Made by a program: the position numbers and the translations under genes. DNA of 64,000 nt from Candidatus Obscuribacteraceae bacterium (lineage in GTDB: Bacteria; Cyanobacteriota; Vampirovibrionia; Obscuribacterales; Obscuribacteraceae): positions 288,001 to 352,000 of the forward strand of contig JBGAHS010000009.1 in assembly GCA_044226015.1 (NCBI GenBank), read 5' to 3'. A model generated the notes under the pieces. That model was not told the origin of the DNA. It saw nothing but the letters and a program-made list of their open reading frames with translations, and searched no databases. This document shows positions 6,415-52,145 of the stretch, in pieces (within the stretch, counting starts at the first letter, position 1; each line of letters opens with the position of its first letter).

Positions 6415-9400
6415 TTAGGCTGAAACGCTCTGTAAGAAGACCTTTAGATACTTCTGCCAGTTCTTGTTCAGGTCATTGTTCGCCAATTGGCGACATTGGG
6501 CTAAAGGAAGTTGAATACTCTTGGTGTCTTTTGTGCCATCCATCTTATATTCGTGTCTCAAGGAAGAATCTTGCCCCACTTCGTAGAGAACGACAGGCAG
6601 CCAGTACTCATTTCTTCTGTATTCCAGTCGCAGCTTAAATCCTGCTTGTCCATCAGTGTTGTTAAAACTAACCAGTCGGCAGTCATTAGATAGATCCTTG
6701 ATTTGGTTTCTGTTTTCGCGGCTCGTTAAGCGCCGGTCGCCCGACCCTGTATCGTCAGCTAGTTCTTGAGATAGAGGGGAAGAGCTAGGTCCCGATTTTG
6801 GAGTCTGTGCTTCGTCAAAGGTCTGCCGTGTATTTTTTGCTTGGGCGAGGTAGTCTCGTGCGCCAGCAAAAATACGGGAATGGGTTATGTATTGGCTATC
6901 TTCGCTATCATCGACCGCTGGTAGCTCATCTTCTTCTATCCGTTCTGATATCACGGGTGGTGCTAGCTGAATCGGCGCTGAAGATGTTTGACCTGTTTTT
7001 GGCGAGCCATCGAACTCATAGTTGCATGATGCGCAAATTGGCGAGTTAATGCGGCACATCCTTGAGCATTGTGGACATTTCTTTTTGTTTGCCAAATCGG
7101 GCTTCGGCAGTGATAGCGAAATCTTCTTCTGCTTTTCCCTGAACGCCGCTATCTCCTGTGGCAGAGGTAATATGAGGGTTGCACCGCGCTCTAGTTCCGC
7201 AACCGGGTTGCCGCCCATATCTATCTCAGTGGATAGTCCGTTCAACTCTGCAATAAGCTTCCATAGAGTTGCATCCTTGATGGCTGGGTGCCGCATAGCG
7301 ATGCCTCTGAGTGTGTCGCCCAGGCGACAGAGGTACCTGATACGACCGTCGTCGACTTCTTGTTCGGGAAGCTTGCCCAGTGCCGCTTCCACGTTTGCCT
7401 TTCGCTTTTGCTCCGCAATGCTAAACTGTTTTGGAACCGAAGCTGCTTTCGCTGAAGGTTTTTCTTCGAAGTCGAAATCATATTCAAAGTTTTCTTGTTG
7501 AGTTCCAAACCAGCGCGTTTGGAATCGCTTCACTTCCATCTGGCTTGGCAATTGCAAAATCAATTTCGGCTTCAATTGTAAATAACGTTTCTCATCACGA
7601 ACCGTTACGGGAATGCGCGACTTGTTGATTTCGTAAATTAAGACTGCAAGCTTTTTGTTGAACAGTTTCTTCTGTGCAATAGACTCAAGAGTGTCTCCCG
7701 TTGCGACGACATAATTTTGTCGTCGCTCTAAATTCAGAAGGTCTTTTTGAGCTTTAATGCGATTCGCTTCTTCCTGAGCTTGTCTGGCTTTCAGCGCAGC
7801 CAGCATAGCGGCTGCATACCGTTTGGCTTCTTCTTCTCTGAGGCGGTCTTCTTGCTCTTTTCTGTCTTTCTCTGTTTCAAGATCTTTAGCCTTCTGCGTT
7901 CTCATTGCTTGATCGAGATCTTCTAGTTTTTCGACAAGCTGGTTAGGATCGGCTACATTGAGAGCGCTGATTTGCTCTGCAAAACTCGGATTAGAGATAA
8001 CTTCGGCAACCTGTTCACCTAGATTGATAAATGATCCAGCAGAGCTGATTTCGTCCGCTGCACCTGATATGGTGCCTTCGCCGTGCATATTGCCTGTGAC
8101 AAGTCCATTAACTATTTCGCCAGCAATGGGGGAAATCGCTGGAGAATTCTCAGCAATCATCGGAGCCAATGCATCTGCGATCGTGTTGGGCAAGTCTTGC
8201 TTAATGGATGGCGGAATATGGCTGATTGCCTCCTGCACGGAACCGGATAGTGGCGGGGCATCATTTGCTATCGGCAGGTGCGCGCTGGGCGCGTCAAAGT
8301 CAGATCTCTGAATTACGGGATCGATTAGCGGCGCTATGAAGTTTTGAATTTGGAAGCTAGCCTGGCTCGACTGTTCGATTACGTCTATGTGCTTGTCTTC
8401 GCTACGCGAGATAGCATTCTGATCTGCTTCCAGTTGTTTGATTAGGTTCAGATTCGTCGCAATTTGCTCTGCTGAGGTCAGGGGCATGTTCTCCGCTTGA
8501 CCATGCTGTGCTTGCTCGGCTTGATGCCCGCCTTGCGGTATCGCATGCGGTGGCTGATGGCGGAACTGTTCCAGAAGCGACTCTACGATGAACTCACTCG
8601 TTGGATGTTGCGCCTGCTGCGTCGGATGCTGAGACTGCTCGTGCTGAGCAGCATCGGCATCGTCTCTGTGGCTTCGGGTATGCCTTTCCTCTAAATCAGT
8701 TTGCAAGTGGCTACCGTCAGTGCGAGTCGAAGTCTCAGCAGGCTGTGTATTCGGCAGCCCTTGAGATGATGGGCTCTGAGTAGGAGACTGCTCTAATTTG
8801 CCAGGCTCTGTACCCGAATTTGTGCCATGCCCACCCTGGTTCGAGATTGGTATCTCCTGTGGTGGCAAGCTTGTTGGTGGGTGCTCAGGAGGCACTGGCA
8901 TACCAGGCAACGGAGTCTTAGATTCGTCGTTGTGGTTGCTGCTGGTAGCAGGAATATCCGGATTCACCGGTTTCTCGATTGGAATCGGTAAATCTATTGG
9001 TTCATGAGTCTTGTCTTTGTCGATCGGTGTGCTGTCAGGACCCTGCTGTGGATGGTGTTCGCGGTCTGGAAGCGGATGCTCCGGAGGTTTTGGTCGTCCA
9101 TCGGGCTTCGGTACCGTCTGCTCGCCATCGTTTGTCGTTGGACCCGGAGTGGGTGGAGTTCTGTCTGTATCCCTATCGACTGGTCCATGCTGAGGCTGTG
9201 TTTGGGTATCCTTGTCCGTTGGTACATGTGGATCTCTGTCCGTTGGTACACGTGTAGGATGTGTCTGTGTATCCCTGTCCGTCGGTACCTGGGGTGCTTG
9301 TGTCTGTGTATCCCTGTCCGTCGGTACCTGTGGTGGCTGTGTCTGTGTATCCCTGTCCGTTGGTAGATGTGTAGGCTGCGTTTGTGTATCCCTCTCCGTT

Positions 9401-12400
9401 GGTACACGTGAAGGCTGTGTTTGTGAATCCCTGTCCGTCGGTACCGGTTGAGGCTGTGTCTGTGAATCCCTGTCCGTCGGTACCGGTTGAGGCTGTGTCT
9501 GTGAATCCCTGTCCGTTGGTAGATGTGTAGGCTGCGTTTGTGTATCCCTGTCCGTTGGTACACGTGAAGGCTGTGTTTGTGAATCCCTGTCCGTCGGTAC
9601 ATGTGGAGGCTGTGTTTGAGTATCCCTGTCCGTACCATGAAATGGAATCGGCAACTCTTTGGGTTCGGGACCATGTATAGGTGGCGGCAAATCTCTGTTG
9701 TCTGGACCATGAGTCGGTACGGGCATGTCTCTTCTATCGGGCAATTGACGCGGTACCGGTAGCTCTATTCTGTCTGGTCCAGTTCCGGTCTCAATAGGAC
9801 GACCAGCGCCTTGATGTGAGGCAGCCGTGTCTGTCTTGTCTGCTCCCTGCGGTGCTGGCAGCGGCAGATCCTGTACCTTCGTGCTCCATGAATCAAGACG
9901 CTCTGTTACTTGATGGGCACGTTCGCCATCAAGATTCTTGTGGGACTCTGGGTGTTCTGAAACACGTGGACTGAACGAACCCTCTTTTACTTCTTTTTGA
10001 ATGTGCTCTATAGGTAGCGATGATGCGCTGGGTTCGGCGATGAATTCTGTTCGGCTTATGATTCCATGCAGTTTTGCCTGATTGGAATTATCACCTGTTT
10101 TTTGATCAAGGTCGCTGCTCAACTTTAAGTCAGGTAGAGGTTTGCCATCAGCTCCTAACTTGATTTCCTGAGCTTTAGTGTCACTCTGTTTGGAGTCTTG
10201 TGTCGATTTTGATTCAGAACCGTGTTTATCAACGCCAGGTTTAGACTCTGAGCTGGATTTTTCACCTGTCTTGCCGTCGACAAGTCGAGGCTCTCCTGCT
10301 TTTGAATCTCCAGCCTTTGACTCGATTACTTTTCCTTCTGTAGTTGAGGCTGTTTTCGCATCAGTGTTCTTCTGCTCGCCTGGCAATTTTAGATCACTCT
10401 GATGTCCTTTGGTTTCACCAGATTTAGATTCAGGAGCAGATAATGTTCTTGAGTCAGTGCTTGCTTTGGCATCAATAAGCGTGCCGGTCTTAGGATCGAT
10501 CTGGGCACCGCTCTTAGGATCAAACTGAGCGCCGGTCTTAGGATCGATCTGGGCGCCGCTCTTAGAATCAATCTGAGCGCCGGTCTTAGGATCGATCTGA
10601 GCACCGCTCTTAGGATCAATCTGGGCACCGCTCTTAGGATCAAACTGAGCGCCGGTCTTAGGATCGATCTGAGCACCGCTCTTAGGATCAATCTGAGCAC
10701 CGCTCTTAGGATCCACCTGAGCGCCTGTCTTAGGATCTATCTGAGCGCCGGTCTTAGAATCAACCTGAGCACCAGTCTTAGGATCTATCTGAGCGCCTGT
10801 CTTAGGATCCACCTGAGCGCCTGTCTTAGGATCAACCTGAGCACCAGTCTTAGGATCTATCTGAGCGCCGGTCTTAGGATCCACCTGAGCACCAGTCTTA
10901 GGATCTATCTGAGCGCCTGTCTTAGGATCGATCTGAGCACCTGTCTTAGGATCAACCTGAGCACCAGTTTTGGGATCTACCGAATGTGATTTAGGATCAT
11001 TTGTGGCATTGGGATCGTTTGATTGAGCTGATTTAGGATCATTTGAAGCCGCTTTCGGATCTACCGGAAGACCTGTTTTTGGATCCGTTCCGGTAATTTG
11101 GACTGAAGGTAGATTTGCGGGACCGACTTGCTGATTACCAGTTGCAGCTGGTCCTTGTGGATCGTTTGTTGGCTTCTGTCCTGCTGTGTTAGATGTATTG
11201 CCTTGTCCTAGCTGACTCAGACCTATACCAGGATCTTTCGAGCCTGCTTTTCCTCCAAGATCTGATGGGATATCAGCTCCTTTTTCGGGTTTACCACTTG
11301 GCGTTTCATTTCGTCCTTGAATGATACCGCCTGTAGTGACTGCCCCAGAGCCTTTCTCCCCGAAACTAATGGGCTTTGTGCTACCGAGAGATTCTCCGGT
11401 TTGCATTCCAGATTTTTCTGGAATCACAATCTTGCTATCGCGAGCATTTGGCTCTGTGTTTTTTCCACTGAGGTCGATGACTACCCGGCTTCCATCATTC
11501 TTAAGACCGCCTTCAATCGGTTTTCCTGTCACAGGGTCTACCGATCTATCTTGAGCTGCTTTAAGAACTCCACCATCAACTTTGCCATCTGCTTTAGAAG
11601 TTTCAATTGGGCGACCTGATGCATCTAGTTTGCCAGCATCGATGTTTCTTGAGCTTTGATCAGCGAGTCTGCCGTCTTTTGCGTTCTGCTCAATGCCTTT
11701 ACCCTCAATAGTCTTGGCGTCGACAGTTTTCAAATCTCCTGTCTTAGCATCAACTTTGGCGTCTCCCAGTTTTGCTTCGCCAATGTGAGACTTCGCCTCT
11801 GAAAGAATCTTCCCGAGGTTTACGGGGTCGCTTGCCGCGCTGTCTCTGGCGCGTTGCTCGTCTTTTCCATGTATTTCCAATCCTGTTTTTGCATCAATGA
11901 GCTTGCCGTCTGCAGTCTTGATGACGTCAACGGTTTTGACACTGTCCACAGATTTATTTTGTTCGGTGACTTTGGCTGAGTCCGAAGTCTTTTGAGCGTC
12001 TTGTGTTTTTGCGTCGGTGCTTGTTGAAGTCTTAGGGTCCTGTGCTTGTCCCTTGTTTTGCTCTTGAGATTTGGCAGGGTCTTGAATCTTCGATTCAGGC
12101 TGAACTTTTACATCGCCCTCAATTTTATTCTCTTGTTTGGGCAATGTGTCATTGGTTTGCTTGGGCTGTTCTGGCTTGTATTCTTGTTTTGATTGTTCTT
12201 GCCGAATTTGCTCTTGTTTTACTTCCTGTCTTACCTGCTCATGCCTTACCTGCTCTTGCCTTGCTTCTACCGCTTTTGCTTCCGCCATTTTTAAGGCAAT
12301 TTCGAAGGCTTTAATGTAGTCCAAGTTCTGGGAACCGCCACCATCTTTTCCTCCGCCGGTGGGTGGATTGGTTGTGCCCGTTGGCGTCGTTGTTGTTGTT

Positions 12401-48423: not shown

Positions 48424-48694
48424 AGTTCAATTTGCATTGAAATTCCTTTTTCTGATTTTCATATTTCACATCTTCTTTACCTGTCGACAATATTATAAAA
48501 GCACGCAAACGATTGCGAGCCTCTTTCTAATCCAACCAAAACCCCGAGACGCCCTGCCCACACAGGGCGTCTCGCATTGTAGAATTCGCTTGTTCGACTG
48601 CATAAATGCGCAATATTTTTGCTTGTCGATACATACAAATCGTCACTGCTCGGCATTAGGATATTAATACAAACGAACCCAAGCCTTTACCCTT

Positions 48695-48730
48695 TTGAAG
48701 ACCTCGCTTAACCGCGAGGTCTTCAATTTT
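48695..48730 (+). terminator. Terminator-like hairpin
   Basis: 13-bp stem TTGAAGACCTCGC/GCGAGGTCTTCAA followed by TTTT. Confidence 0.6.
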
Positions 48731-48860
48731 GTGCAATCTATTTGCTGATTTGTTTCACGACTTCTTTACCGATGCTGAGTATATTGATTGCATGCGAGTG
48801 AGGCGGTTAGCTCACAATAACAGTTTCTGACTCGCAACGAATTTGAAGGGCTGGTAATTT

Positions 48861-48900
48861 AAACGCTCTGGTGGGCAGACCAGAGCGTTTTTCTTTTTTT
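48861..48900 (+). terminator. Intrinsic terminator
   Basis: 12-bp stem AAACGCTCTGGT/ACCAGAGCGTTT followed by TTCTTTTTTT. Confidence 0.8.
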
Positions 48901-48911
48901 GTTATTTGTAC

Positions 48912-49805
48912 TTAGCTATTTCTCAGTTTGAATGTCTTCAACATGCCTTCAACTGATGGATATATTGATTTGTCGCGTTCGGGATAGATGGTGCTAACGA
49001 TGAAGAAACATCTGTTGCCTGCCATAAACACCCAATGTCTCCAGTGCACATCTTTGTTGTTTTTGTCTTTTACGATTGATTCAAAGAAGACTGCGTCATA
49101 TTCGCCTACCGTACTTTTCTTTAGATCGCCTGGCTTCGCTTTCTTTTGCACTCGTCGAGCCCATTCAGAAGCAACTTGCTGAGGAACTTCCTTTAGTAAT
49201 TCCTGCTCGTTGCTTTTGTTGATTGAAGTGAAATTGCCGAGGTCGTAAATGTCCATGCCCGTTGATTCGCCAGGAGGAGTGCAAAGTACCCAGTTGCCGT
49301 TATCTTTCGTTGACCAGCCTTTTTCGAGGTTCAGTTCATAGGGTTTGCGTTTTCCACCTTCTTTAAATTCAAAAACTATCGGATGGTTAGACTTTGATTC
49401 GTTAGTTTCCGATTTCGCGGCGTTGTAATTCCATTGGGAATGAGTTTGCAGTGCGATTGCATCTAGGAATTGGCGAAGAGTAGGCTTATAAAAGGATGGA
49501 AATTGCGATATCAAAACGGTTTTTGAAATCTTGTCTGAATTCGTTTGAATTGATATAGAGCGCCGTTCACCCTGTTGGTTTGATTTCAGTTGTGCGTTTT
49601 GCAGTTGCGCGAACGGCACACCCATACCACCAGCCATTCTTTGTTCGAGTATTGTGTTGAGCTGTTCGTCACCAGATTTGGTGTCATTGTTTATTGCTGC
49701 CCTTGGCTTTGCCATGTCGGAGTCGGCGTCGGATGCGGCAAATGTTAGAGCAGCGCTTTGAAAAAATGTGAGTGCTGCTAAAAGGGTTAGTCTGGATTTG
49801 TTCAT
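48912..49805 (-). CDS. Secreted hypothetical protein
   Basis: AAGGA RBS, signal peptide ending ALTFA, two apparent globular regions; no family recognised with confidence. Confidence 0.75.
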   Translation of the reverse strand: MNKSRLTLLAALTFFQSAALTFAASDADSDMAKPRAAINNDTKSGDEQLNTILEQRMAGGMGVPFAQLQNAQLKSNQQGERRSISIQTNSDKISKTVLISQFPSFYKPTLRQFLDAIALQTHSQWNYNAAKSETNESKSNHPIVFEFKEGGKRKPYELNLEKGWSTKDNGNWVLCTPPGESTGMDIYDLGNFTSINKSNEQELLKEVPQQVASEWARRVQKKAKPGDLKKSTVGEYDAVFFESIVKDKNNKDVHWRHWVFMAGNRCFFIVSTIYPERDKSIYPSVEGMLKTFKLRNS

Positions 49806-49942: not shown

Positions 49943-50464
49943 GTCAGAGAAACGCGGGTGAAAGTCTGACGAAGAGGATCCATCAGTCAAAGAAATGCGG
50001 GTGAAAGTCTGACGAAGAGGATCCATCAGTCAGAGAAACGCGGGTGAAAGTCTGACGAAGAGGATCCATCAGTCAGAGAAACGCGGGTGAAAGTCTGACA
50101 GAGAGGACCCGGAAGTCAGAGAAACGCAGGTGAAAGTTTGACAGAGAGGATCCCGCAGTCAAGGAAACTTGGGTGAAAGTTTGACAGAGAGGATCCCGCA
50201 GTCAAGGAAACATGGGTGAAAGTTTGACAGAGAGGATCCCGCAGTCAAGGAAACATGGGTGAAAGTCTGACAGAGAGGATCCCGCAGTCAGAGAAACGCA
50301 GGTGAAAGTCTGACAGAGAGGAGCCGGAAGTCTGAGAAACGCAGGTGAAAGTCTGACAGAGAGGAGCCGGAAGTCAGAGAAACGCAGGTGAAAGTTTGAC
50401 AGAGAGGATCCCGCAGTCAAAGAAACATGGGTGAAAGTCTGACGCTGCTGTGAAAACTGTCAGA
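49943..50464. repeat. Non-coding tandem array of 12 x 43-bp palindrome-containing units
   Basis: Units start at 49943, 49986, 50029, 50072, 50115, 50158, 50201, 50244, 50287, 50330, 50373 and 50416. Consensus GTCAGAGAAAcgcgGGTGAAAGTYTGACagaGAGGAtcccgcA. An extra in-register GTCAGA lies at 50459. Confidence 0.97.
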
Positions 50465-50633
50465 ACGGACCAAGAAGCAGAGTACGGTTTTTCTGCCCTT
50501 GACTTGCAGAAATTCTGAAGGAAAATCTGATACTGCCTATGGTATCAATATTTAATATAAATTCACTGCTCATAACTTGCATTCTCCTATACTTTACCTA
50601 ACATTGGATAGAAACATATCATCAGGTGTGCAA

Positions 50634-51311
50634 GTGAGTTCCATTGCCGCAAGATTGCGCGAGCACTTCAAGACTCTTCCAGCAAACGCATTGGTTTCAG
50701 CCTATGCATTGCGAGCCCTGGGCTCTCCCGATGCTGTTTATAAATTTCTCTCTCGAGAAACTCAAGCCAAGCGTATAGAGAGGATCAGCCTCGGTGTTTA
50801 TCGAGTGAATTTAACTGCGGCAAGACCTGTGATTTCCAATCTTTCAGTGATGTCCATCAAGTCTCTTGCTTTCAGAAAAGATGTTTTTCCAGTAGAAGGG
50901 AATGATTCGAAATTTAGGACCAACGGCTGTAAGAGCGCTCTTAAGATAGGTGGTAAATTGGTCAGATGGGTACCGGCTAGCATCAAAAAGATACGAGCCC
51001 TCTTAAAACTTCCACTTGGACCCGAGAAAAACAATCAGGTTTCCGACACGACGCGAGAACAATTATCGAAGTTTGATGGGCTCAAGGTTTCTATTTTTCC
51101 AACGGAGAATGATCGCTCAGCGATTCCAATAGCAGCAACAACTTCTCTAGAGTTGAGGTATGAAATCCAGAAATTAATACATGTTCTATGTCGGGTAACC
51201 GGAAATAACGGCTGGCGAGTTCCGCTGCAGCAGGCAAATACAGCACTGTTTTCCTTTCCTTATTTTGTTCCCCTTCCAATAGAAAGGGGGTACCTGCGTA
51301 CCCCCTTTTGA
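50634..51311 (+). CDS. AbiEi/DUF6088-like winged-helix protein (type IV antitoxin-like), no adjacent toxin
   Basis: N-terminus SIAARLREHFKTLPANALVSAYALRALGSPDAVYKFLSRETQAKRIERISLGVY fits the AbiEi-type wHTH pattern (LGS..AV...LSR......I.RI..GVY). FRTNGCKSALKIGGKLVRW resembles the downstream part of DUF6088. Probable start GTG 50634 with CAGGTG upstream. Confidence 0.7.
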   Translation: MSSIAARLREHFKTLPANALVSAYALRALGSPDAVYKFLSRETQAKRIERISLGVYRVNLTAARPVISNLSVMSIKSLAFRKDVFPVEGNDSKFRTNGCKSALKIGGKLVRWVPASIKKIRALLKLPLGPEKNNQVSDTTREQLSKFDGLKVSIFPTENDRSAIPIAATTSLELRYEIQKLIHVLCRVTGNNGWRVPLQQANTALFSFPYFVPLPIERGYLRTPF

Positions 51312-51312
51312 A

Positions 51313-52047
51313 CTAACCTTTGTCTGTTGGTGCCTCTTTGTGCTCACCACCAGGTCCGCCATGGTGCCCGCGATGGCCACCTGGACCTCCGTGTCCACCC
51401 GGACTGCATCCACCGCCACCGCCGCCGCCGCTTCTATGACCCCATCCGTGGTGCCTCATTTTTCCATGCATCATCATTGGACCGAAATCCATCATCTTGA
51501 TGTAGCTCTTTCTCAGTTCTTTTCGCTGCTCGGCAGTCAGCGTATTGAGTAAGCTAATTCGCTGTTCCAGTTTCATGTTTGCCAGGTCATTGTGAAGCGA
51601 ATTGATCTTGCTCTGTAAGCTCATAGCCTTGCTTTTATCAAAGTCTGGTTGGGTCAATAAATCATGAAGTGCTCTTTCTTGGGATTTGAGCTCAACCATT
51701 TTTGGTCCTGCTTTATCAAGAAAGTCGTTCTTTGCTTTGTACATCTGCTCTAGTTGTTCGTCAGTGAAATCACTGTGAACGCCAGCTCGGAGCATCATCA
51801 CGTCCCCACCGCCATGAAAAGCTATGTTATCGCCGCCTTCATCTGGACCGCCAGGGCCTGGAGGAGGCTCTGGAGGACCCCCGAACGGTTGTGGTGGCAT
51901 AGGTGGATTTAGTGACACATCAACACCGTCCATTAATTCCGTCGCAACACCCGGTTCAGCCTCTTGTGCAAAAGCTGCTGGTAAAAGAGAAATGCTAGTA
52001 GCGCCCAAAACCCCTAATAACAGGGCAAGACGACTTGTTCTTTTCAT
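51313..52047 (-). CDS. Periplasmic Spy/CpxP/ZraP-like protein with His/Gly-rich tail
   Basis: Signal peptide ending PAAFA, FTDEQ and LTAEQRKEL (LTxxQ) motifs, Met/His/Gly-rich C-terminus, GAGG RBS. Confidence 0.85.
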   Translation of the reverse strand: MKRTSRLALLLGVLGATSISLLPAAFAQEAEPGVATELMDGVDVSLNPPMPPQPFGGPPEPPPGPGGPDEGGDNIAFHGGGDVMMLRAGVHSDFTDEQLEQMYKAKNDFLDKAGPKMVELKSQERALHDLLTQPDFDKSKAMSLQSKINSLHNDLANMKLEQRISLLNTLTAEQRKELRKSYIKMMDFGPMMMHGKMRHHGWGHRSGGGGGGGCSPGGHGGPGGHRGHHGGPGGEHKEAPTDKG

Positions 52048-52145
52048 GAAAACACCTCAACAAAAAAAGTGCGTTTCTTCTAAGACGTCTTATTCCGCTA
52101 AAAAGTTCAAAATTTCGCTGGAAATCTTTGTTAAAGGATTCTCAT

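Follow-up and report, generated by a model that had tools for sequence, protein, structure and literature searches.

The window analysed here, a stretch of 64,000 nucleotides from the genome of a Candidatus Obscuribacteraceae bacterium, contains a tandem array of 43-bp palindromic units followed by a gene for an AbiEi/DUF6088-like protein that has no toxin gene beside it (positions 49943 to 51311). Judged from sequence, the unit of the array is the palindrome that is found singly 5′ of DUF6088 genes, and an amplified operator is the best reading of the array as a whole. We consider it probable that this operator serves the toxin-less DNA-binding protein and that both belong to an inserted cassette. 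Array and gene are indeed an inserted unit, as the genes that flank them here are adjacent in two relatives. That they form an inserted, family-wide and multi-copy cassette is missing from the sequence-only reading of this DNA, which had proposed the coupling of array and gene.

Structure of the Array

Tandem Repeats Finder reports 11.7 copies of period 43 (matches 91%, indels 0%), and a core pattern search gives 12 matches, each exactly 43 bp apart, against a mean of 0.01 in 100 shuffles. Both agree with the exact, indel-free period described in the sequence-only reading, and its inverted pair GTCARR-N16-TYTGAC, with half-sites 21–22 bp apart, is also as claimed. The second inverted pair that it listed, TGAC-N15-GTCA, is present but is merely the junction between units, the family palindrome having the GTCAGA...TCTGAC orientation, and the gap between array and gene measures 190 bp rather than about 170 bp. 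Across the 11 full units, among which there are nine distinct sequences, the columns GTC, GAAA, GGTGAAAGT, TGAC, AGAGGA, CC and the final A are constant. The variable windows, 4–6 bp in length, draw on the same four or five alleles. In a contig of a near-identical strain, the first array units bear alleles found elsewhere in the window array, which indicates that units reshuffle and that no new spacers are gained.

These properties bear on the suggestion that the array yields repeated small RNAs, namely that its transcript is cut into unit RNAs acting with the protein, in the manner of type III antitoxins, CRISPR or TIGR systems. The + strand of the array folds more stably than shuffled sequences (z −7.3), and constant blocks are interleaved with variable windows, as this model would have it. 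However, any tandem palindrome folds alike, the few window alleles are reused and swapped, and arrays occur on either side of the gene in the family. Moreover, an Rfam scan with CRISPR models included gives no match within the array, and the protein, a DNA-binding winged helix, has no Pfam or PADLOC match to Cas, Nop or ToxN/CptN/TenpN proteins. We hold an RNA array to be very improbable. A CRISPR array in particular was rejected on the short windows with their reused alleles, on the Rfam result and on the absence of cas genes among the 11 open reading frames (ORFs) scanned.

A centromere-like or replication-arrest platform, resembling parS/parC, iterons or Ter sites, is another way to account for the even spacing of twelve palindromes next to a gene for a winged helix, with half-sites two helical turns apart. 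Yet even half-site spacing is restricted to arrays with 41–43 bp periods, and the combination of 21–22 bp spacing and 43-bp period is confined to the clade of the window, periods elsewhere being 35–92 bp. Furthermore, cassette copies are chromosomal, present many times and scattered along large contigs in both orientations, and no ParA/ParM partition ATPase or Rep gene is adjacent. The centromere-like platform of the sequence-only reading thus fares badly, and we view this whole class of explanations as extremely improbable. A role in replication termination was discarded on the scatter of copies in both orientations.

The Unit Matches the Operator-Type Palindrome of DUF6088 Loci

In four out of four proteobacterial plasmids examined, taken from 342 matching records, GTCAGA-N14/16-TCTGAC lies 43–68 bp 5′ of a DUF6088 gene; two of the four have AbiEii. 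The genome's single DUF6088-abiEii operon (L081:2003-3071, contig C12 of G000), whose toxin gene is frameshifted and split over two frames, has one 28-bp GTTAGA-N16-TCTAAC just 5′ of the start codon, and a site of the same type precedes the gene in 7/7 close relatives of this canonical operon. Elsewhere in the phylum, two of the three well-matching DUF6088 loci score equally high for the palindrome, and no such palindrome was found near the start in 12 distant or partial AbiEi-type loci. More generally, NNNAGA-W4-N6..8-W4-TCTNNN exceeds the 95th percentile of 152 control stretches at 106 of 142 family loci, under a scoring rule that was written after such sites had been seen. By family palindrome score, the window array ranks first among 288 arrays of the genome, two related 43-bp arrays on contig C10 being third and fourth.

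An inverted repeat upstream of the antitoxin gene, a feature of AbiE, is therefore present at the window locus. AbiEi and Rv2827c bind the inverted repeats of their own promoters, as described in two reports (PMC3985639, PMC7319586), and it is on these grounds that we infer binding here. The operator idea of the sequence-only reading is strengthened by these data, since the unit that it described corresponds to a palindrome found singly before DUF6088 genes.

A Toxin-less Protein with an AbiEi-Type Winged Helix

An AlphaFold2 model of the window protein, built from a 143-row alignment, has a predicted local distance difference test (pLDDT) score of ~95 at residues 1–123 and <65 past residue 130. 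The confident part is predicted to consist of a winged helix and the first part of a second domain. The PADLOC AbiEi profile PDLC02226 matches residues 3–57 (E=6e-7), and direct Pfam and NCBIfam scans of the window protein return zero matches. DUF6088 (PF19570) is matched by 8/9 homologues from other genomes, two of which exceed the cut-off, and is the top ESM Atlas cluster for the window protein (score 0.93). In structure comparisons, the first Foldseek row is S. agalactiae AbiEi (6Y8Q), with a weak E=0.24, and the longest VIA alignment is to the same structure (Z 6.9, root-mean-square deviation 3.9 over 95 residues, model residues 3–114), the remaining rows spanning little beyond the winged helix. 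A search of solved-structure sequences with the 143-row alignment gave no match. Profile comparison of the three-member clade of the window with the genome's canonical DUF6088 protein gave a probability of 2.6%, the clade profile being too shallow. In a set of 5.8 billion sequences we recovered only the window protein itself and one 50%-identical relative, and a metagenome scan gave no confirmed locus. Taken together, a profile-level match, an N-terminal winged helix and an AbiEi-type second domain, the latter two with modest structural scores, are the features of the AbiEi/DUF6088 family that are present, and they bear out the type of winged helix assigned in the sequence-only reading.

The gene is also an orphan, as that reading had it: no AbiEii gene lies beside it, the next gene being a convergent Spy-like gene. 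No catalytic domain was found in the cassette gene, and there is no HUH motif among its conserved columns. The C-terminal PxWL motif of the family is missing in the window protein and in its paralogue on contig C10, and the last ~100 residues are modelled with low confidence. Because the C-terminal domain of AbiEi suffices for toxin neutralisation (PMC3985639) and this part is degenerate here, antitoxin activity of the window copy is doubtful. The locus would resemble AbiE in its autoregulation but is not an AbiE system, as it lacks a toxin gene and its neutralising region is degenerate.

Arrays at a Subset of DUF6088 Loci across the Family

Profile searches identified the family in 94 of 104 Obscuribacterales genomes, with 1–34 matches each, counts that include canonical operons and short matches to a fused domain described below. 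From ~505 matches, we examined 197 distinct loci, a non-random set enriched in best matches and high-copy genomes, of which 183 are near full length. A toxin gene was flagged at six of these 183 loci, one of them doubtful, and a frameshifted one was found in addition. Arrays, counted when located <=500 bp upstream or <=350 bp downstream of the gene, are present at 39/183 loci, and at 15/36 within the genus of the window, compared with 359 of the 4878 long genomic ORFs (7%). The difference widens when only arrays whose unit contains the palindrome are counted (23/183 loci vs 13/4878 long ORFs). Four of the 39 array loci do not look operator-like and were set aside. Array-flanked homologues, for which the sequence-only reading had proposed a search, thus occur in several genera with arrays built on the family palindrome, and the outcomes it had named as refuting, where examined, did not refute the operator reading.

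On a quick tree, many forks of which are open, the array loci are distributed over approximately eight groups; a single array origin followed by many losses may also be compatible with this distribution. The arms of the palindrome appear to be the conserved part. The C10 paralogue, 46% identical to the window protein, has an array of 13.9 x 43 bp in which the arms are kept and the linker is not, and at one orthologous site of genus g20, a 37–38 bp array is found in 11 genomes, in 3–19 copies, with conserved arms and variable linkers.

Recognition-Helix Residue 37 and the Half-Site

The sequence-only reading had also asked whether the array sequence varies with the recognition helix. Residue 37 tracks the third base of the half-site: K goes with C in 22/26 half-sites, N with G in 17/20 and Q with T or A in 70/100 (genus-collapsed permutation, p=0.006). 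The window protein carries K37, and base 3 in its array is C. Among 46 independent pairs, residue 37 and base 3 changed together in 9/13, against 10/33 (p=0.019), and in 4/4 pairs that oppose K to a non-basic residue, C is found on the K side. This part of the covariation stood up, whereas the pairs test did not single out the column and plasmid proteins deviate (see below). A residue 37–base 3 code is no more than suggestive.

An Insertion Sequence Carrying the Same Winged Helix

Independent information comes from an insertion sequence of 1.6–1.7 kb, whose transposase consists of an integrase core, with a weak IS481 match, and a C-terminal DUF6088/AbiEi winged helix. Its copies were located via the short profile matches mentioned above (L219-L227 in G082, G101 and G061; also G000:C2:46039-47505). 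In 9/9 copies examined from three genomes, the element sits within a 26–28 bp palindrome of the operator type, with a target duplication of 5 bp at palindrome offset 8–9 (once 13), and none of the insertion sites scores below the top 3.6% of 2700 control positions. The target half-site in G082 is GTCAGA. This placement supports, indirectly, the view that the AbiEi/DUF6088 winged helix reads such palindromes, although targeting through a host protein may be an alternative. The transposase family occurs in 30/104 genomes, not always with the fused domain, and we saw no insertion sequence inside an array.

Insertion and Multi-Copy Spread of the Cassette

Only ~90–170 bp separate the Spy-like gene from the orthologue of the 297-aa flanking protein in genomes G007 and G002, against 1507 bp in the window, and a DUF6088 match is absent from the 1.5 kb flank of seven relatives, one of which stops at a contig edge. 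Empty sites were likewise found for a g20 cassette copy, in G026 and G073. The DNA contigs from sequencing runs contain no joint spanning the cassette. Copies are dispersed: G016 has 14 that are 93–99% identical to the reference copy over ~740–835 bp and lie at unrelated sites, each with the palindrome at the left end only and the right end near the stop codon. Filled and empty sites together with dispersed near-identical copies are the features of a mobile cassette, the working class that we use here. The downstream gene is convergent at 122 of the 154 loci with a called downstream gene. In the window, the cassette ORF appears to read through into host DNA, and no terminator was found between array and gene. 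The toxin-less cassette genes are under purifying selection in all copy sets tested, the ratio of nonsynonymous to synonymous substitution rates (dN/dS) being 0.085 across 17 G016 copies and 0.12–0.22 in four further sets. As a side observation, one g20 cassette (L228, in G082) lies directly behind an apparent tRNA gene cluster, recognized by eye on the left of its array; the same site is occupied by other genes in G026 and G073.

How the copies spread is less apparent. No transposase of their own was seen and, judged by eye, no pair of terminal inverted repeats and no target duplication. Two candidates were rejected. The winged-helix transposase as a helper has no match to its query in G016, G007 or G001, and rolling-circle mobility (IS91/IS200-type), suggested by the sharp 3′ ends in G016, was dismissed on the absence of an HUH motif and on the ragged ends in G084, G001 and G099. 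On the other hand, the left arms are variable, the left segments are mosaic and some pairs of copies have a common 5′ flank, a combination that fits recombinational copying with the palindrome as its anchor, although gene conversion between older copies might yield a similar pattern.

Promoter Motif and a Possible Host Function

A motif GAAC(T/C)(T/A)-N12-16-CGT is present at 142/173 toxin-less loci and at 2/165 controls. With its T-tract, it fits the consensus of extracytoplasmic function (ECF) sigma factors, as given in PMC5758882, and it also occurs 5′ of both Spy-like host genes. The activity of the window copy is doubtful because its CGT is missing. These data, along with the purifying selection seen in every copy set (dN/dS 0.085–0.22), are what one would expect if the protein were a stress regulator adopted by the host, under an ECF-type promoter, acting in trans as a spare antitoxin, as a repressor of incoming AbiE modules or as a blocker of the insertion sequence, with arrays that tune its free level; potential partners exist, as AbiEii toxins are found in 77/104 genomes and the targeting transposase family in the 30 mentioned above. 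However, the window copy combines a degenerate promoter motif with the loss of the toxin-neutralising C-terminal part of AbiEi, and the number of AbiEii genes does not scale with that of orphans: G016 has 34 matches and one toxin, and in G001, G025, G029 and G032 we found several orphans and no toxin. A dosage effect of antitoxin in trans was rejected on this independence. Similarly, the transposase has no match in G016 or G007 with the query used, and no array was seen to contain the insertion sequence. We regard host adoption as rather improbable.

Other observations were made on this motif. Genome-wide, G000 has 20 occurrences of TGAACT(T/A)TTT-N10..13-CGT, for which the spacing peak is 29 vs ~7; the motif precedes Spy-like genes (e.g., window position 52109), a DnaB-like gene and genes for secreted proteins, which likely form an ECF stress regulon, to judge from their upstream sequences. 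A second multi-copy family, whose proteins of 320–530 aa combine an IS1595-type zinc ribbon with a DprA-like winged helix and lack a clear DDE domain, is found at L311:691-1686, L312:680-1663 and ~13 G000 loci, eight of them behind the same ECF-type motif. Finally, the leaders of L003, L009, L011, L017, L077, L082, L084 and L090 have complementary blocks, GCGGTC/GCGATC and GACCGC/GATCGC, ~55 nt apart; in this one clade the blocks lie 60–90 bp before the start codon and a possible RNA structure may explain them.

Weighing the Proposed Amplified Operator

A number of points weigh against the amplified operator. The window palindrome has a 16-bp spacer and inner arms that are less A/T-rich than in the usual 14–15 bp form. 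Structure matches are weak, with no Foldseek E<0.001 and many unrelated winged helices tied at Z 6–7.6. Approximately four in five loci are array-free and carry one or two palindromes, so that the gene does not require an array. Arrays may be upstream or downstream, and at five genus-g1 loci they are downstream, where a simple promoter block is impossible. Two arrays with the same or a degenerate palindrome, C10:288746-289006 (43 bp) and C1:408144-408410 (41 bp), have no DUF6088 gene or remnant nearby. Column 37 is only 25th of 123 in the pairs test, which we attribute to the fact that any change tracks overall distance, and four plasmid proteins have Q or R at position 37 and yet C at the base. 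No copying enzyme was found for the cassettes. Lastly, the genome has 154 arrays with periods not divisible by 3, which makes neutral amplification possible.

This last point leads to the alternative of a neutral satellite, in which an ordinary orphan antitoxin has one working operator and the array is a functionless by-product of slippage at a protein-bound palindrome. The genome is certainly rich in arrays (288 by one rule, 154 by another), helical phasing over 31 arrays with periods of 35–92 bp is not significant (Rayleigh p 0.14 and 0.28), the g20 site varies from 3 to 19 copies, units are reshuffled between strains, and arrays without the gene exist. A mere by-product is nevertheless difficult to reconcile with the retention of arms and period while linkers diverge, both between paralogues and across 11 genomes at one site, and with their recurrence in about eight groups of the tree, in genomes where the surroundings of these genes are not rich in repeats overall; at a distance from the gene, array-rich genomes and the others do not differ in array density (4 in 96 kb vs 9 in 273 kb). 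We thus consider a neutral satellite unlikely.

Under the amplified operator, the protein would likely bind every unit of the array, which would act both as a multi-site operator and as a sink, holding the expression of its own gene low. By analogy with AbiEi, one protein would sit on each half-site, two per unit, and the adjacent promoter would be repressed. Most cassettes have two or three palindromes, between which slippage or unequal recombination would make arrays grow, and grown arrays would be retained because more sites hold more protein. The least certain step is the spread of cassettes, which might need no transposase of their own and proceed by a recombination-type copying that starts from the palindrome as an anchor. 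One may go further and imagine a transposase-free selfish element, in which the antitoxin-derived protein pairs its own operators and drives both the copying of the cassette and the tandem amplification of its sites, the helix residue retunes the palindrome, and a transposon has borrowed the domain for aiming; we put this forward only tentatively.

Features of the Locus and Other Repeats

Table 1. Array, Gene and Flanking Features, in Window Coordinates
Feature	Positions	Strand	Remarks
Left host flank, 297-aa protein without Pfam match	48912..49805	-	Directly after Spy-like gene in G007 and G002
Tandem array	49943..50443	.	11.7 x 43 bp; unit = 28-bp GTCAGA-N16-TCTGAC-type palindrome + 15-bp linker
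Degenerate 27-bp palindrome copy	50505..50531	.	Top site in 330 bp 5′ of gene; near likely promoter
Degenerate ECF-type promoter motif TGAACTT..CGT	50573..50600	+	CGT missing here
Toxin-less AbiEi/DUF6088-like gene	50634..51311	+	225 aa, GTG start; residues 1-123 predicted well folded
Hairpin with A/T tails in ORF 3′ end	51283..51308	-	Likely terminator of convergent Spy-like host gene; absent from consensus scan
Right host flank, Spy/CpxP-like LTXXQ protein	51313..52047	-	Convergent with cassette gene

Other repeats were noted in the window and the genome. Three perfect hairpins with 12–13 bp stems and 6-nt loops lie between two convergent genes (48545-48574, 48695-48726 and 48861-48890), a 34-bp piece at ~48662-48695 recurs five times on contig C11, and 48841-48919 gives a weak, sub-threshold match to the Rfam cyano-S1 leader. 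The tandem repeats at 9227-9633 (39 bp x 10.4) and 10484-10977 (24 bp x 20.6) have periods divisible by 3 and are probably coding. In G000, tandem arrays with periods of 16–139 bp cluster at C1:241k-506k, C4:10k-130k, C7:629k-706k, C10:4k-10k and C11:1354k-1387k; the clustered arrays have common cores, one family being built around GGTACC and another around GCGAAGCGATAGC. Among the hexamer palindromes of this genome, over-representation is strongest for GGATCC and GGTACC.

Significance and Comparison with Known Systems

In the literature covered, which did not extend to subscription journals and supplements, we found no description of a DUF6088 site, of family-wide orphans, of the arrays or of the targeting transposase. 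For DUF6088, a widespread family of unknown function, there is now a concrete candidate for its DNA site, valid from Proteobacteria to Melainabacteria. The family also offers the case of an antitoxin gene that, minus its toxin, spread to tens of places per genome under selection, and of an operator turned satellite in several lineages, which suggests how one class of bacterial tandem repeats may originate, in a way that lends itself to testing. The winged-helix insertion sequence may be a small site-specific transposon that can be retargeted.

Among described systems, AbiE type IV toxin–antitoxin modules share with the cassette the N-terminal winged helix with its H3 recognition helix, as in S. 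agalactiae AbiEi (6Y8Q; PMC3985639) and M. tuberculosis Rv2827c (PMC7319586), and inverted repeats 5′ of the antitoxin gene, of which there may be several, four at Rv2827c (PMC7319586). The AbiE site has two 23-bp arms, whereas the palindrome here is a different and shorter one that measures 26–28 bp in total. The cassette differs further by the absence of toxin, the partial loss of the C-terminal domain, its 12 palindromes (24 half-sites) and its nature as an inserted multi-copy element. The insertion sequence can be compared with IS1202/ISAba32, elements targeted to XerCD sites, with which it shares an IS481/IS3-related DDE transposase, a 5-bp target duplication and insertion at a protein-binding palindrome (bioRxiv 10.1101/2022.12.17.520857); it differs by its C-terminal AbiEi/DUF6088 winged helix, its operator-type targets and its ends, CG..CG and not TGT. 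The DUF6088 (PF19570)-AbiEii operons of plasmids and contig C12, a pairing tabulated in PMC12654330, share with the cassette both the protein family and the palindrome 5′ of the gene. In those operons, a single palindrome overlaps the promoter and a toxin gene is usually present; the cassette has an amplified palindrome and no toxin.

Type III toxin–antitoxin systems consist of a repeat array, a terminator and then a ToxN/CptN/TenpN RNase; at the window locus, no terminator was found between array and gene and no Pfam or PADLOC match to such an RNase. TIGR-Tas systems have a Nop-domain protein by a dual-spacer array, and the window protein is instead a winged helix of the AbiEi family. Repetitive extragenic palindromes and bacterial interspersed mosaic elements (REP/BIME), miniature inverted-repeat transposable elements (MITEs) and mobile insertion cassettes are, like the present cassette, intergenic, often between convergent genes, with tandem palindromes and no transposase of their own; unlike them, the present cassette has a protein gene under purifying selection, and terminal inverted repeats, target duplication and a helper were not seen for it. 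Orphan chromosomal antitoxins, or anti-addiction modules, likewise consist of an antitoxin-family gene on the chromosome without its toxin. What sets the present family apart from them is its dispersal, up to 34 matches per genome, its operator arrays and, in the clade of the window, the loss of the neutralising region.

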